Virus record (IMG/VR): IMGVR_UViG_3300020156_000024
Reading direction: 5' to 3' (one strand)
Length of the DNA stretch: 64,000 nt
From: a virus
The position numbers and the translations under genes are program-made. The notes below the pieces were generated by a model. It was not told the DNA's origin and searched no databases. It was given only the letters and a program-made list of their open reading frames with translations. Shown here piece by piece: positions 9,689-42,906 of this stretch. How positions within the stretch are numbered: position 1 is the stretch's first letter; every line of letters starts with the position of its first letter.

Positions 9689-9716
9689 GTAGACACCTCC
9701 CGAGCTGGTGTGTGGG

Positions 9717-9792
9717 TGCCGCACCCGGGATTCGAACCCGGACTGGACTGGTTTTTGAAGCCAGCGCGTCTGCCAAGTTGCGCCAGAGCGGC
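9717..9792 (-). tRNA. tRNA-Leu(CAA), 76 nt, short variable loop, CCA not encoded
   Basis: Cloverleaf: acceptor GCCGCTC/GTGCGGC, D-arm with TTGGCAGAC, anticodon loop TTCAAAA, T-arm CCGGG-TTCGAAT-CCCGG, discriminator A. Confidence 0.88.
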
Positions 9793-37971: not shown

Positions 37972-39552
37972 TCAACTCTCAGACGGTGCCCACCGCCGCC
38001 ATTCAAGCCCCACTCGCTCCGGATCGAACTGGCGCGTCCCCCGGATTCCCCGCTTGAGCTTGAGCTCGGAGAACAGCGACCGGATGACGTCCCGCCGGCC
38101 TGAAACCGGGAACCCGGCCCACATCTCGCGGACCAGGGCCTCTGCCGTCGCTCGGTCTGACGCCCCCAGCATGCCGGTGAACGTCCTGAGAATGGGCGGG
38201 ATGCCGATGTTGCGCGCCGCGGCTTCGGCTGCTTCGATCTGCGAGGTGAGCTCCAGCTTCCGCTCACCGTATTGATCGAGGGTCAAGATCTTCCGCTTGT
38301 ACCCCTCATACGCCTCATCGAGCGTTGCTCGGAGCGCATCCGCCTCGGCCTGGGCGATGATCACCACCGCGTCATCTTGTACGACTGCTTGCGACAGCAG
38401 GTCGGGTTGGCTGAGGCGATGCACGACCATGTCGGTGATGTAGTCGTCAACCCAGTCCTGCCGCACCGACACGCACCCGCTCTTGCCTGTCGCCGCGCCG
38501 CCGGCGTCCAGCCCGGAGCAGTGGTAGCGCGGGCTCTGTTTCTTCAAGGGCTGGTGGGCGATTACGGCCCCACATTCACCGCAGGTCATGAAACGCGTCA
38601 ACAAGTGGACTGCCTTCCCAGGGCTCTGGCTGGCGTGAGCTTTTGAGCGTTCGTTCATCACGCGCTGCGCAGCCCAGTACAGCATCGGCAGCGTCTCGGA
38701 CAGGGGCGGCCACTGGGCGTCTAGGAGCTCATTGGAATGCGGGTCGCGGCGCTTCCCAATGTGCGCGGGGTTCTTGAGCGTGCGGCGAAGGGCCTCAGTC
38801 GACCACGTCGCGCCGCGGCGCAGGACAGGAACTCGTCGGGGGTCATCCTGGGGAAGGTCGATGCGCGAGTTCAGATCGCGCATGATCGCGGTCAACGCTT
38901 CACCACCGGCCACGAACCGTTCGAAGATCTCGACGACCACCCTGCTCTCCTGCGGCTCGGGGATCTGGCGGAGGAGATCACCGGTGTCCGGGTCGTACTC
39001 TCGCTTGTGGCCGTAGCAGAGAGGCCCGTCGGGCCGGCCGAGCTCTCGAATCGCCTTCTTGTCGCGCTTGTTGCGCAGCGAGGTCTTCGCCGACTCCATC
39101 TCGGCATCCACGCCCTCATCCGCAAGGGTCTTCCAGTCCCGAGGGTTGCGGACATCGTAGGTGCGCCCGTGTGTGACCACCCGGATCGGCACGGCCAGAT
39201 CGCGGCACAGGGCGAGAAACTGGAGCCACTCGACGCTTTCACGGGACCCGCGCGAGGACTCCCAGAAGACCACGAAGTTGATCTTCCCGTCCTCGACATC
39301 GCGAACGAACCGGGGCCAGTCGACGCGGACCACCGTCGAGTGGCGGGAGGCCGGCATGTTGTTGTCGTGGTCGTAGACCTCTTTGATGAGCACTGGGCGG
39401 CCTTCATGGCTGCCGAGCTCTGCAATGTCGATACGGGCGTCGCTGACCTGCTGGTCGACGGAGGCTCGCTCGCGGAGCATGCGCTTCCGCGTGTCCTTGG
39501 AAACCCGGGCGTAGATGCCTGCCTGCCACGCTGCGAGCAGAAGATCACTCAT
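37972..39552 (-). CDS. int: Large serine recombinase (phage integrase)
   Basis: YARVS catalytic motif, WESSRGSR, LCYGH, recombinase domain, CGECG Zn ribbon, coiled coil. Confidence 0.95.
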   Translation of the reverse strand: MSDLLLAAWQAGIYARVSKDTRKRMLRERASVDQQVSDARIDIAELGSHEGRPVLIKEVYDHDNNMPASRHSTVVRVDWPRFVRDVEDGKINFVVFWESSRGSRESVEWLQFLALCRDLAVPIRVVTHGRTYDVRNPRDWKTLADEGVDAEMESAKTSLRNKRDKKAIRELGRPDGPLCYGHKREYDPDTGDLLRQIPEPQESRVVVEIFERFVAGGEALTAIMRDLNSRIDLPQDDPRRVPVLRRGATWSTEALRRTLKNPAHIGKRRDPHSNELLDAQWPPLSETLPMLYWAAQRVMNERSKAHASQSPGKAVHLLTRFMTCGECGAVIAHQPLKKQSPRYHCSGLDAGGAATGKSGCVSVRQDWVDDYITDMVVHRLSQPDLLSQAVVQDDAVVIIAQAEADALRATLDEAYEGYKRKILTLDQYGERKLELTSQIEAAEAAARNIGIPPILRTFTGMLGASDRATAEALVREMWAGFPVSGRRDVIRSLFSELKLKRGIRGTRQFDPERVGLEWRRWAPSES

Positions 39553-39994
39553 AGCCCTAAATATAGTTGGCCCGCACGACCACGGGGGCATCGGGGTCCT
39601 ACCCCTATATTACGAATGCACGGAAACCCGCCTGGTTCAGTCGTGAGCCTAAGTCGCCCCGGTGGGTGACCCACCGGGGCGGCCCGCCATTGCCGCAGTG
39701 CTGGCACGCCACGACCCAGGCCCTTCCAGTTTCGACCCGGCCCCCCGAGGTGCATATCGGCCGATCGGATGACAAGGGAGCCCGACCGCCGGTGCTGGCA
39801 CACGCGTGCGGTCGGGCTCGCTCCTTGAGGGTGCCCTTCAAGATCAACTCTCAGGCGCTGGCTTGTTTACATAGGGTGACGGCCTGGCCGCGGTCCTGGG
39901 GAGGCGCGACCAGGCCGGGCCCCGGCCCCCCACCAGCCGGCCGGGGAGGGCCGCCGCCCCGCCCCACAGGACGGCGGCCCCTCGGGAGGCAGGT

Positions 39995-40255
39995 TTATGA
40001 CGCCAGCTCCGACACCTCGGCGCGGAACGCATCGAACGCCGCCCGCAGTTGGATGATTGCGAGGTCGTCGGTCGGCGCGAACGTCATCAGATACAGACGG
40101 CCGCTGCGGATGATTCCGACCGGCGTGGCTGAACCGTTCGCGATGTCGTTCAACCAGATCGCCTCACCGAACTTCTCGTTCGCGATCATGTCGGCCTCGA
40201 TCTGCATGTGGCGCCAAGGGAACGTCCCGAGGATCATCGCGGCCCTCGCAGCCAC
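39995..40255 (-). CDS. Small hypothetical protein (start uncertain)
   Basis: Overlaps upstream ORF; followed by GC hairpin 39948-39980. Confidence 0.5.
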   Translation of the reverse strand: MAARAAMILGTFPWRHMQIEADMIANEKFGEAIWLNDIANGSATPVGIIRSGRLYLMTFAPTDDLAIIQLRAAFDAFRAEVSELAS

Positions 40256-40524
40256 TGGACGATCTCCGAGTAGATCTTGGTGTCGAGGGCGTCCCGCCTG
40301 TACTGCTCAAGCGTGCCTAGGCCGGTGTCGTTCCACTGGACGGTGGCAGTGGCCGCATACGACCCGTAGGGGACGCGCGCGAGTTCGCGCCAGAACCCCT
40401 CCCGCAGCATGAGGACGGCGGCGATGCCGGCGCCGCGGTCGACGAGCCGGAGTCCGGCTCCCCATGACGCGATCACGCGGTCTTGCTCTGGCGGTCTGGT
40501 GGTCCGTACGATGGGTGTGGTCAT
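40234..40524 (-). CDS. Small hypothetical protein divergent from XRE gene
   Basis: AGGGA RBS before MTTPIV. Confidence 0.55.
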   Translation of the reverse strand: MTTPIVRTTRPPEQDRVIASWGAGLRLVDRGAGIAAVLMLREGFWRELARVPYGSYAATATVQWNDTGLGTLEQYRRDALDTKIYSEIVQWLRGPR

Positions 40525-40741
40525 CAGAGGTTCCCTCTCTGGTGTCTGAGTCGGAGCCCCGCCCGGGCCTAACGGGCGGGGCTCCGGGCGTTCCGGCGTA
40601 GATGCGCGGTAGGAACGCCCAGACCTGCGATGCAGGTCATATATCGAAGGTAAGACGGTGTGCGGCCCCATGGGAAGAGGCGCGGCCCGAGACACAATGT
40701 CGGCCTGTTTTGTGTCCACGTCGATCATGGACTAGGCGCTG

Positions 40742-41596
40742 ATGTCGTGGGACACTACGTGCATGAGCGAAGCGCAACCCACACTCGCCAGGCGTGACCT
40801 CGGCATTCGCCTCAAAGGACACCGCGAACGCAAGGGCCTCACCGAGAAGGAAGCCGCCGACCTTCTCGGCTACACCGTCAAGACCATCCAACGCATCGAA
40901 GCGGGGACCCACGGCACCCGGCGGCCGGTCGTCGAGTCCCTCGTCGGCCACTACGGCATCAACCAGGACGAGGCCTCGTACCTGCTCGGTCTCGTCGTCC
41001 GAGGCGCTGAGCGCGGCTGGTGGGAGGACTACGTCGACAAGGGAACCAAGCAGGGAACCCGGCCCGACTTTCCACTGTTCCTGGAATCCGAGCAGATCGC
41101 CACGCTCATCCAAGTGCTGGAAACCGAGGTCATTCCCGGGCTGCTCCAGACGCCTGAGTACCTCCTGGCCCTCCAGGATGCGCAACTCCCGATCCCCGCC
41201 GAAGTCGCCGAAGCGGTCCGCGGCCTGAGGACGATCCGGCAGAAGCTCATCTACAGCCGCACCGCCCCGCCGCGCATGGAGTTCTGCATCGGCGAGGGCG
41301 CGTTCCGGTACCTCACCCGGCTCCCGGGCCCGGTGCGCGACGGCCAGATCAACCGCATCCTCGAAGTGTCGGCGATGCCGAACGTGGACCTGCGGGTCAT
41401 AACTCAGCTGCACGCCGGGGCTGCGGGCGCGTTCAATATCATCACGGCCTCTGATGGCGTGGACCCGTTCGTATTCGTTGACCTCATGGACGGGTGCCGC
41501 TACGTCGAGGACGACCACATAGTGTCGTTGTACGGGCGGGGATTCCGTGCCGCCCGTGACGACAAAACCGTAACGGTAGAGGAGTATCTACGATGA
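40742..41596 (+). CDS. XRE-family regulator (HTH + DUF5753; WhiJ/Scr1-like)
   Basis: ARRDLG.RL...RE.KGLT...AA, GWW, ESE, VIPGLLQTPEY, R..RQ, LYGR.F motifs. Confidence 0.92.
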   Translation: MSWDTTCMSEAQPTLARRDLGIRLKGHRERKGLTEKEAADLLGYTVKTIQRIEAGTHGTRRPVVESLVGHYGINQDEASYLLGLVVRGAERGWWEDYVDKGTKQGTRPDFPLFLESEQIATLIQVLETEVIPGLLQTPEYLLALQDAQLPIPAEVAEAVRGLRTIRQKLIYSRTAPPRMEFCIGEGAFRYLTRLPGPVRDGQINRILEVSAMPNVDLRVITQLHAGAAGAFNIITASDGVDPFVFVDLMDGCRYVEDDHIVSLYGRGFRAARDDKTVTVEEYLR

Positions 41597-41766
41597 AGAC
41601 CAGGTGGCGGAAGTCGAGCCGCTCCCAAGGCAACGGCGGAAGCTGCGTCGAGCTGCGGGTCAGCGACGACGACTTCCAGGTCCGTGACTCGAAGCTCGGG
41701 GACTCTTCCCCGATCTTCGATCTCGACCCGAAGGATCTCACAAGTTTGCTGCGCGCCGCCCGCTGA
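41593..41766 (+). CDS. DUF397 protein (57 aa)
   Basis: MKTRWRKSSRSQGNGGSCVEL...VRDSK; ATGA overlap with XRE gene; below ORF-track cutoff. Confidence 0.93.
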   Translation: MKTRWRKSSRSQGNGGSCVELRVSDDDFQVRDSKLGDSSPIFDLDPKDLTSLLRAAR

Positions 41767-41832
41767 TACTTCCGGCGCCCCCGGCAGGATCAACTGAGCG
41801 ACGGCAACAACCACGCATCTCTACACAGGGTA

Positions 41833-41870
41833 GCGGCCTTCCCGACATTCCGGGGAGGCCGCTTCATTCT
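41833..41870 (+). terminator. Terminator of XRE-DUF397 operon
   Basis: GCGGCCTTCCC...GGGGAGGCCGC stem then TTCATTCT. Confidence 0.65.
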
Positions 41871-42185
41871 GTGCCGGGGCGTCCGCAGGACCGGACCTCG
41901 CCGCCGGGGAGGCGGCGTTCGGACACGGCGGCCGGATCGGCCGAGGCGGCCCACCCGAATAGGGGTTGCGACTCCCCAACGTCTTCGCCTACTCTGGACC
42001 GTGGCTGCGTATCCGGTTCGATCCCGGCTCCCTCGTCCATGGGGGGAGGCGTGAAGGTACGCCGCGTCAACCGCCTGCCGACTCGGGGATGCCTGGGAAG
42101 GGTGGCACCTGACGCAAAATAGGAGACATCCGCGCCGCCAACGTAGAGAGGCCCCGCTCCCTGACGAGGGAGCGGGGTTTTTCGT
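41871..42185 (+). ncRNA. Candidate structured non-coding RNA or attenuator leader (unclassified)
   Basis: No convincing ORF; several hairpins, a T-arm-like CCGG-TTCGATC-CCGG, ends in a strong U-tailed terminator. Confidence 0.3.
42151..42185 (+). terminator. Strong intrinsic terminator
   Basis: CCCCGCTCCCT-GACG-AGGGAGCGGGG then TTTTTCGTT. Confidence 0.85.
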
Positions 42186-42203
42186 TGTGCGGCAAGCACT
42201 TCA

Positions 42204-42267
42204 AAATAGACGATATCGCTTATTGACATCTCCTCGATACTGCCCTACTCTCGAATAAACGATATCG
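42204..42267 (+). promoter_or_regulatory. Consensus promoter TTGACA-N17-TACTCT flanked by two CGATATCG palindromes
   Basis: -35 42223-42228, -10 42246-42251; AATA(G/A)ACGATATCG at 42205-42218 and 42254-42267. Confidence 0.8.
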
Positions 42268-42291
42268 GAAACTCGATTGAAGGAGCCCCCC

Positions 42292-42906
42292 ATGACCGCA
42301 GGACGACCCAGCACCGGCACCCCCGTCCACGTCCGCCTCGACGACGACACCCTCGCCAGCCTCGAAGCCTGGCGGTCGCGCCAGGGCATGAACCGGGCCG
42401 AAGCCGTCCGATACCTCCTCAGCCAGGCGCTGAAGATCGGCAGCATCGACGACACCTTGAATACCCTCCAGAACCTGACCGTCGAGGCGCTGTTCCACGA
42501 GGCCGAGGGCGACCCGGAGGCCATGTACGACCTCCTCATGGAAGAGCAGTTCGAGTCCATCGCCGGCATCGAGTCCGACCCCGACCGCCCGACCGTCCTC
42601 TGCATGGGCGTCCACCTCGCGCGCGGCCAGTGGATCGTGATCGAGGAGCGGTGGAGCACCAGCAAGACCAAGATGTGCGGCCTCGACAAGCTCGAGACGC
42701 GGCGGATGGCCGTCGGCAAGGACAAGGCCGACGCGATCCGGATCTACAAGGACTGGATGGCCGAGGTGACCGCGATCTACTGGAACGAGGGCGAAGAGCC
42801 GCTGTGGTCCGGCGAAGGCGTCGACGGGGACTACGTCGGCTACGGCGACAAGGAGATCAAGTGGCGCGGCCTGATCCCGGACGGCTCGATCTGGCAAGGC
42901 GAGTAG
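42292..42906 (+). CDS. Ribbon-helix-helix (CopG-like) domain fused to an unknown acidic domain
   Basis: PVHVRLDDDTLASLEAWRSRQGMNRAEAVRYLLSQAL; GAAGGAG RBS. Confidence 0.8.
   Translation: MTAGRPSTGTPVHVRLDDDTLASLEAWRSRQGMNRAEAVRYLLSQALKIGSIDDTLNTLQNLTVEALFHEAEGDPEAMYDLLMEEQFESIAGIESDPDRPTVLCMGVHLARGQWIVIEERWSTSKTKMCGLDKLETRRMAVGKDKADAIRIYKDWMAEVTAIYWNEGEEPLWSGEGVDGDYVGYGDKEIKWRGLIPDGSIWQGE

Follow-up and report, generated by a model that had tools for sequence, protein, structure and literature searches.

The stretch of DNA analysed here, called the window throughout, consists of 64,000 nt of GC-rich, actinobacterial DNA in which two prophages lie side by side (Table 1). The two prophages abut at positions 37972-40740, and no att site was identified around this region. 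Since the large serine recombinase gene found there adjoins the repressor/cro region of the left prophage, it was assigned to that phage, to which it most likely belongs; the end of the right prophage would therefore fall between ~39600 and 40000. A tRNA-Leu(CAA) gene (9715-9792, minus strand) is located inside the left prophage, just upstream of its terminase region, and appears to be carried by the phage rather than to have served as a target for integration.

On the plus strand, an XRE-family regulator gene and a DUF397 gene precede a non-coding stretch, which is followed by a gene for an RHH-domain protein. The homologues of the XRE protein came mostly from Glycomyces, as did the closest named ones, and the search of genome_contigs with this protein returned only relatives at 31-33%. 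Analysis of the neighbouring proteins with PADLOC gave nothing convincing and no link to a defence system.

Table 1. Coordinates of the features discussed, numbered from the first base of the window
Feature	Position	Strand	Remarks
Left prophage: early genes, terminase, portal, head genes	~35.9 kb down to 0.4 kb	minus	
Large serine recombinase gene	37972-39591	minus	
XRE-family regulator gene (HTH_31 + DUF5753)	40742-41596	plus	Pfam match; upstream neighbour of the RNA, same orientation
DUF397 small protein gene	41593-41766	plus	Pfam PF04149 at 7e-14; translationally coupled to the XRE gene
Non-coding stretch between the DUF397 and RHH genes	41767-42291		525 bases
Terminator hairpin of the XRE-DUF397 operon	41832-41873	plus	13-bp stem, loop ACAUUC, tail UCAUUCUGUG
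42-nt GC-rich insertion with nested hairpins	~41893-41934		edges uncertain by a few nt; outside the RNA gene
Promoter-like motif TTGCGA-N18-TACTCT	41966-41995	plus	predicted start ~42002, 0-1 nt before P1
Predicted RNA transcript	42002-42183	plus	~180 nt; six-helix junction domain and terminator
P1, 5' strand GGCUGCGU	42003-42010	plus	pairs with 42132-42139; two pairs change on both sides (five copies)
H1, CCGG-UUCGAUC-CCGG	42013-42027	plus	T-arm-like hairpin
H2, CUCCCUC-GUCCAUG-GGGGGAG	42028-42048	plus	7/7 pairs change on both sides (five copies)
H3, GCGUG-AAGG-UACGC	42049-42063	plus	U-A to C-G in relatives
H4, long irregular hairpin	42064-42115	plus	base is GCGTCA/TGACGC
Conserved block AAUAGGAGACAUCCGCGCCGC	42118-42139	plus	identical in 4/5 copies; three differences in G169
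H5, GGA-GACA-UCC	42122-42131	plus	within AAUAGGAGACAUCCGCGCCGC; GGAGACAUCC core invariant in 5/5 copies
Intrinsic terminator	42146-42183	plus	17-bp stem, loop GACG, then UUUUU; 6 nt after P1
RHH promoter TTGACA-N17-TACTCT flanked by two CGATATCG sites	42211-42267	plus	outside the RNA
RHH-domain protein gene	42292-42906	plus	Pfam RHH_1, PHROG 4738; downstream neighbour in 3/5 RNA copies
Right prophage late operon: terminase, portal, capsid, tape measure, endolysin	63983 to 42958	minus	

The stretch 41767-42291 carried no coding signature: GC content was flat across the three codon positions, against GC3 values of 0.83-0.95 in the flanking genes, and the ORFs within it had no match in Pfam. A small ORF was rejected on these two grounds and because the one 27-codon frame is not conserved, its counterpart in the related contig L009 reaching a stop after two codons, as read from the alignment. 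An earlier sequence-only reading had described ~310 nt lacking a credible ORF and bracketed by two hairpin terminators, and both points were borne out, the terminators being those at 41832-41873 and 42146-42183.

Five copies of the element were collected: the window, two metagenome contigs (L009 and L011) and two Glycomyces genomes (G155 and G169). L009 and L011 are close relatives that keep the entire non-coding region. They are 89% identical to each other while the other pairs range from 52 to 68% identity, and the five sequences amount to about four lineages. To the left of ~42120, L009 resembles L011, and to the right of it the window, a pattern typical of phage mosaicism. Searching 33 Glycomyces genomes with BLAST yielded the G155 copy. 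A scan of IMG/VR with a 21-mer of the AAUAGGAGACAUCCGCGCCGC block recovered the identical sequence within a provirus whose record ends ~1.2 kb away from it. In the G155 genome (L033; G155:C9, 7126-9810), a gene for a large serine recombinase immediately follows a subtilase (Peptidase_S8) gene that seems to be truncated; the RNA-carrying prophage probably integrated at this split subtilase gene. The G169 copy was found by a covariance-model search. The model scored 137-141 bits on the window and 122 bits on G155, and detected copies in prophage context only.

The element is rare. Two of the 33 Glycomyces species genomes were positive with the covariance model and the other 31 negative; over 151 family-level genomes the same search, run with strict filters so that few candidates were scored, returned nothing. 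Scans of metagenome_contigs with the invariant 21-mer and with the RHH promoter pattern were both empty, no similar DNA was present in phage and plasmid records, and BLAST with the G169 variant within the genus gave only short, chance-level pieces. The element was also absent next to the XRE homologues at 62-90% identity that lack an RHH gene (L013, L016, L018, L034 and L035). Two sets of candidates were not retained. A 17-mer pattern matched in 18 of 401 genomes, and the eight loci fetched look unrelated (at most 15 bits, several of them open coding frames). A weak model match in L013 (1536-1698) fell from 20 bits to 11 with a second model.

The RHH protein has seven relatives at 67-100% identity, and the contigs show the order DUF397, gap, RHH recurring in several elements, an XRE-like gene also preceding DUF397 in the P0003 contig. 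No relatives of this protein were found in IMG/VR. In the distant RHH relatives, only the promoter/operator region (42205-42290) is retained. In five of these loci (L003, L004, L007, L008 and L012), the RHH gene is followed by genes for a PycTM-like protein, an M48 peptidase, a TraG/VirD4-like coupling protein and an ATP-dependent DNA ligase, and not by phage lysis genes. Mobile elements of different kinds therefore share the RHH gene, which moves between them.

The functional unit is shorter than the stretch flagged by the sequence-only reading and extends over ~42002-42183 on the plus strand. Its minimum free energy in the window is -100.3 kcal/mol (z = -5.05), and none of 200 shuffles was as stable. 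The predicted architecture consists of a closing helix, P1 (42003-42010 with 42132-42139), which encloses five hairpins, H1 to H5, and is followed by the intrinsic terminator. The same architecture was obtained from five independent single-sequence folds, with z-scores of -6.92 for L009, -6.64 for L011, -5.05 for G155 and -5.06 for G169; in no case did a shuffle fold as well. The minus strand of the region reached a z-score of -1.63 and was 20 kcal/mol weaker than the plus strand. This asymmetry arises from the many G-U pairs of the fold and points to an RNA rather than a DNA structure.

Comparison of the copies showed how the individual helices are maintained. The stem of H1 persists, one C-G pair being replaced by A-U in G169 in a compensatory change, and its loop reads UUCGAUC, UGCGAUG, UUUGAAC or UUCGAUU in the homologues (consensus U-K-N-G-A). 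The strands of H2 are CTCGGGC/GCCTGAG in L009 and L011 and CCCTC/GAGGG in G155. The base helix of H4 is swapped for GAGCUC/GAGCUC in L009 and L011, and the apical GGGAUGCC of this hairpin (42086-42093) is invariant. The 3' strand of P1 (42132-42139) lies inside the conserved AAUAGGAGACAUCCGCGCCGC block, and no other alternative pairing that involves it was seen. The two invariant blocks, GGGAUGCC at the tip of H4 and GGAGACAUCC in H5, carry the mutually complementary strings GGAUG and CAUCC. They could form a tertiary or alternative pairing with each other, on which covariation is uninformative because both blocks are invariant.

In the alignment of the five sequences, both partners change in 23 of 47 pairs and 90.8% of cells are paired, a count that leans toward the model because this alignment was fitted to it. 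When the registers were slid by 1-3 columns as a control, 3-6 pairs changed on both sides and 36-45% were paired. Because of this leaning, the test was repeated on an alignment made with MAFFT only. The consensus energy was then -46.0, compared with -16.6±3.2 for 300 column shuffles that preserve the gap and conservation patterns (z = -9.3), and the structure conservation index was 0.68 at ~60% identity. By comparison of this small set of five sequences, the predicted structure is thus conserved beyond the sequence itself, with compensatory changes.

The part of the flagged stretch that precedes the RNA, 41871-42000, contains the promoter and a strain-specific insertion of 42 nt. This insertion is present only in the spacer copy of the window and missing from L009 and L011; no second copy of it occurs elsewhere in the window, and the sequence around it does not align in the G155 and G169 copies. 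It is here that three of the hairpins noted in the sequence-only reading are located (GTCCG/CGGAC, CGCCGCC/GGCGGCG and GGCCG/CGGCC), around an insertion that the two closest relatives do not have and outside the RNA. The two remaining ones, GGCGT/ACGCC and GCGTCA/TGACGC, are real and conserved, and correspond to H3 and to the base of H4. Further upstream, the terminator hairpin of the XRE-DUF397 operon shows compensatory changes in L009, L011 and G155, and its tail is invariant, together with the bases that follow, across the three closest copies.

Transcription signals were then compared between the copies. The promoter-like motif of the window, which a strict sigma-70 promoter scan did not list, corresponds to TTGCGG-N18-TACTCT in L009, TTGCGG-N17-TACTCT in L011, TTGACC-N17-CATCAT in G155 and TTGACC-N17-TACACT in G169. 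The G169 motif comes near to the consensus and overlaps the upstream ORF at its end. Despite the differences in promoter sequence, the -10 motif ends 6-7 nt ahead of P1 in all five copies. At the other side, the terminator hairpin starts 6-10 nt past P1 in all five; the terminators of G155 and L011 have poor U-tracts, and a simple terminator scan did not list the one at 42146-42183. A predicted promoter and terminator of its own, read as motif matches rather than mapped ends, thus bracket the RNA in every copy, in the manner of an sRNA gene.

Beyond the terminator, the RHH gene has a separate promoter (TTGAC-N18/19-TACTCT) placed between two CGATATCG sites. This arrangement is conserved in nine loci (L003, L004, L005, L006, L007, L008, L009, L011 and L012), which include loci without the RNA, even where the upstream sequence differs, and it is consistent with an autoregulation by the RHH protein. 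The first base of one further contig (L010, a Logan contig of 1021 nt) corresponds to window position 42258, exactly 34 nt ahead of the RHH start codon. It is 7 nt past the -10 hexamer of the RHH promoter, as if at the transcription start.

A promoter and a terminator proper to the RNA, the terminator of the upstream operon and the separate RHH promoter make a self-contained cassette the best reading and an RHH leader or attenuator unlikely. We consider it likely that ~42002-42183 on the plus strand is a stand-alone gene whose product is a structured RNA of ~180 nt, and that Glycomyces prophages carry it close to their end as an accessory cassette. That the segment might encode an unclassified non-coding RNA had been proposed in the sequence-only reading, and a structured RNA on the plus strand is supported by the conserved architecture, the covariation and the strand asymmetry, Rfam 15 giving no match. 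On present comparisons, it is most aptly treated as a new family of structured small RNAs from Glycomyces prophages, unclassified so far.

According to this proposal, the housekeeping-type promoter at 41966-41995 would start transcription 0-1 nt before P1, as judged from its motif. The transcript would fold so that P1 closes a six-helix junction formed with the T-arm-like H1, then H2, H3, the long H4 and the small H5, and the strong intrinsic terminator would end it 6 nt past P1. As no conserved alternative pairing with the terminator was found, termination looks constitutive. The RNA would presumably be made in the lysogen and act in trans, its fold being more likely than a base-pairing seed to be the means by which it works. 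Invariance in the loop of H1, in GGGAUGCC at the apex of H4 and in GGAGACAUCC of H5 suggests that it may bind a protein or another RNA. A bolder proposal, which we regard as rather unlikely, is that the RNA represents a new class of prophage RNA whose T-loop hairpin and invariant loops dock on a tRNA-recognising factor, so that it serves as a decoy or scaffold in phage-host conflict or in lysogeny control. If true, the factor could be a modification enzyme, a nuclease or a tRNA-sensing defence protein, of the host or of the phage.

The domain could also belong to the XRE-DUF397 transcript as its 3' portion, transcribed by read-through of the first hairpin and possibly processed; its role would then be that of a 3' UTR with a stabilising or regulatory effect. 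The RNA does lie downstream of a co-oriented XRE-type HTH gene wherever the upstream gene is visible (the L011 contig starts before any), the U-tract of the first terminator, UCAUUCUGUG, is weak, and the promoter of the RNA is a motif match only. However, the -35/-10 motif stays at a fixed distance from P1 even where the sequence has diverged and is near-consensus in G169, the first terminator is itself maintained by compensatory changes, and close XRE-DUF397 homologues (L013 at 90% XRE identity, L016 and L018) are found without the RNA. A 3' UTR therefore seems unlikely.

The layout of the stand-alone gene, namely a promoter, a P1-closed multi-helix junction with invariant junction and loop bases, and a terminator 6-10 nt after P1, is also that of a cis-acting riboswitch or attenuator. 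Its junction would be a sensor whose state determines formation of the terminator at 42146-42183, thereby gating read-through into the RHH gene or into transcription antisense to a convergent gene. A related proposal of the sequence-only reading was that bases 42023-42037 pair with 42163-42177 at 14 of 15 positions, in exclusion of the terminator, and thereby gate read-through into the RHH gene, which is next and co-oriented in three of the five copies. The complementarity is real, since 14/15 was reached in none of 100 dinucleotide shuffles of the 315-nt stretch, but a conserved antiterminator role did not survive comparison with the relatives. The pairing exists in the window only: ~9/15 positions remain in L009 and L011 and ~8/15 in G155 (counts read from the alignments and sequence), although the terminator is nearly identical in these three copies. 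It is therefore not under selection. The upstream strand covaries instead with its local partner in H2, and no conserved, mutually exclusive pairing that involves the terminator was found among the copies. A conditional attenuator of the RHH gene is further contradicted by G155, in which the next gene after the terminator is a convergent HTH_17 gene, so that a co-oriented gene directly downstream is not common to all copies. Moreover, the RHH gene has its own promoter and operators past the terminator, RHH homologues at 67-71% identity lack the RNA altogether, and no Rfam riboswitch model matched any copy at E values up to 10. We consider a riboswitch or attenuator to be quite unlikely.

The T-arm-like string CCGGTTCGATCCCGG followed by CTCCCTCGTCCA at 42013-42039 had been read as a T-arm with acceptor strand and CCA, which raises the possibility that the segment acts as DNA, either as the remnant of a tRNA 3' end that marks an att site or as inverted repeats for recombination or regulatory proteins. 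The hairpin CCGG-TTCGATC-CCGG (42013-42027) is indeed present and conserved as H1, but the acceptor strand and CCA are not conserved. The proposed acceptor strand, TCCCTCG-T-CCA, is part of H2, in which CTCCCTC pairs locally with GGGGGAG and covaries with it, and CCA is lost in all four relatives. Neither ARAGORN nor the Rfam tRNA model detected anything in the segment, tRNA-Leu being the only tRNA detected in the window. The Rfam comparison that had been suggested gave no match in the segment with Rfam 15, at gathering scores or at E values up to 10, and the same search on the window and the four homologous loci gave none that overlapped the RNA. The exact 21-mer across the T-arm and the supposed acceptor occurred in 0 of 185,579 species genomes and nowhere in IMG/VR, and the exact 25-mer used in the same test had no match in genome_contigs or IMG/VR. 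With no cloverleaf, the CCA lost and the 21-mer absent, a tRNA gene or a tRNA-derived att fragment was discarded.

The position of the element bears on the same question. In favour of a DNA element are the T-arm-like sequence a few kb from the prophage end, the large serine recombinase gene 2.4 kb from the RNA, and the G155 module, with a serine integrase ~3.5 kb away that lies in a split subtilase gene. An inverted repeat linked to the att site had been suggested, but the XRE-DUF397-RNA block lies inside the prophage and has the same synteny in other elements. Both flanks of L009 are syntenic with the window, and in Glycomyces sp. NPDC021274 (L016) the XRE-DUF397 pair occupies the same prophage end, next to lysis genes. 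The syntenic flanks and the position in G155 therefore place the RNA inside the mosaic accessory region of the prophage and not at an attachment junction. Furthermore, ARAGORN found no tRNA gene within 20 kb around the G155 copy, and the fold is G-U-rich and strongly strand-asymmetric, which duplex DNA or cruciform sites would not show. A DNA-level element is thus very improbable. Finally, that the hairpins are chance products of GC-rich intergenic DNA is hardly credible: many hairpins are expected at ~66% GC, and the part that held the first three of those originally noted is built around a non-conserved insertion, but z-scores of -5 to -7 in five copies and an architecture conserved at 52-68% identity argue against it.

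The reading as a tRNA remnant with an antiterminator was attractive but wrong, and it left a coincidental 14/15 complementarity that is beyond chance in shuffles and yet not under selection. Structured RNAs built on multi-helix junctions are rare finds, and most of the known bacterial ones are riboswitches, ribozymes or protein-sequestering RNAs. The RNA described here combines clear covariation with transcription signals of its own, on temperate phages of a little-studied actinobacterial genus. Should lysogens express it, the accessory genes supplied to hosts by actinobacteriophages would come to include an RNA-only cassette. Structural studies would also gain a tractable RNA of small size that contains a T-loop-type hairpin.

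T-loops follow a pentanucleotide pattern in which the first base is U, the fourth a purine and the fifth A. H1 has a stem of 4-6 bp and a loop of 7 nt whose first five bases are UUCGA, UGCGA, UUUGA or UUCGA in the copies; U1, G4 and A5 do not vary and the second base is either U or G, so that H1 conforms to this pattern at the sequence level. The T-loop motif, whose general role has been reviewed (PMC4919913), also occurs in RNase P, the T-box stem I, the ribosomal L1 stalk and several riboswitches. Unlike tRNA, the RNA has no D-arm, anticodon arm, acceptor register or CCA, in agreement with the negative results of ARAGORN and the Rfam tRNA model.

Among actinobacterial prophages, the parABS cluster A mycobacteriophages express during lysogeny a non-coding RNA needed for extrachromosomal replication of the prophage (Wetzel et al. 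2020, PMC7157519). That study demonstrates both the existence and the importance of such RNAs. The likeness is that of an intergenic, actinobacterial prophage RNA close to lysogeny functions. The mycobacteriophage RNAs, however, adjoin parABS in non-integrating phages and act as replication initiators (PMC7157519), whereas the prophage carrying the RNA in G155 is integrated at a serine-integrase site, and that of the window abuts a second chromosomal prophage. No parABS was seen near the RNA, which ends at a strong terminator. It is thus set apart from those RNAs by its context, and the search of phage records returned no similar DNA.

Two Rfam families resemble the RNA in plan. None of the FMN, T-box, cobalamin, Y RNA/YrlA and tmRNA models of Rfam 15 was at or near its gathering score. 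The FMN riboswitch (RFN element) is a P1-closed six-helix junction that is often followed by a terminator, a plan that recalls P1 with five hairpins in ~140 nt and then a terminator. In contrast to it, the RNA had no RF00050 match at E values up to 10 in any copy, no conserved antiterminator, and no riboflavin-related or consistently co-oriented downstream gene. YrlA (Bacterial Y RNA-like) is a tRNA-mimicking RNA bound by Ro60/Rsr and also occurs in some phages; common to both are the 5' and 3' ends paired in a closing stem and a T-arm-like hairpin. A Y RNA-like identity was rejected, as the Rfam Y RNA/YrlA models matched no copy and TROVE/Ro60 (PF05731) had no match in G155, G169 or G001, while control genomes matched.

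The last comparison is with the stand-alone sRNAs of prophages, which are promoter-RNA-terminator 'moron' cassettes and include the prophage sRNAs known from enterobacteria. Enterobacterial prophage sRNAs are mostly short base-pairing regulators with a single-stranded seed, whereas the RNA described here is predicted to be a six-helix junction of 140 nt with little conserved single strand. With these sRNAs it shares a compact cassette with its own promoter and intrinsic terminator, a place in the accessory region near the prophage end, and a mosaic distribution among related phages.
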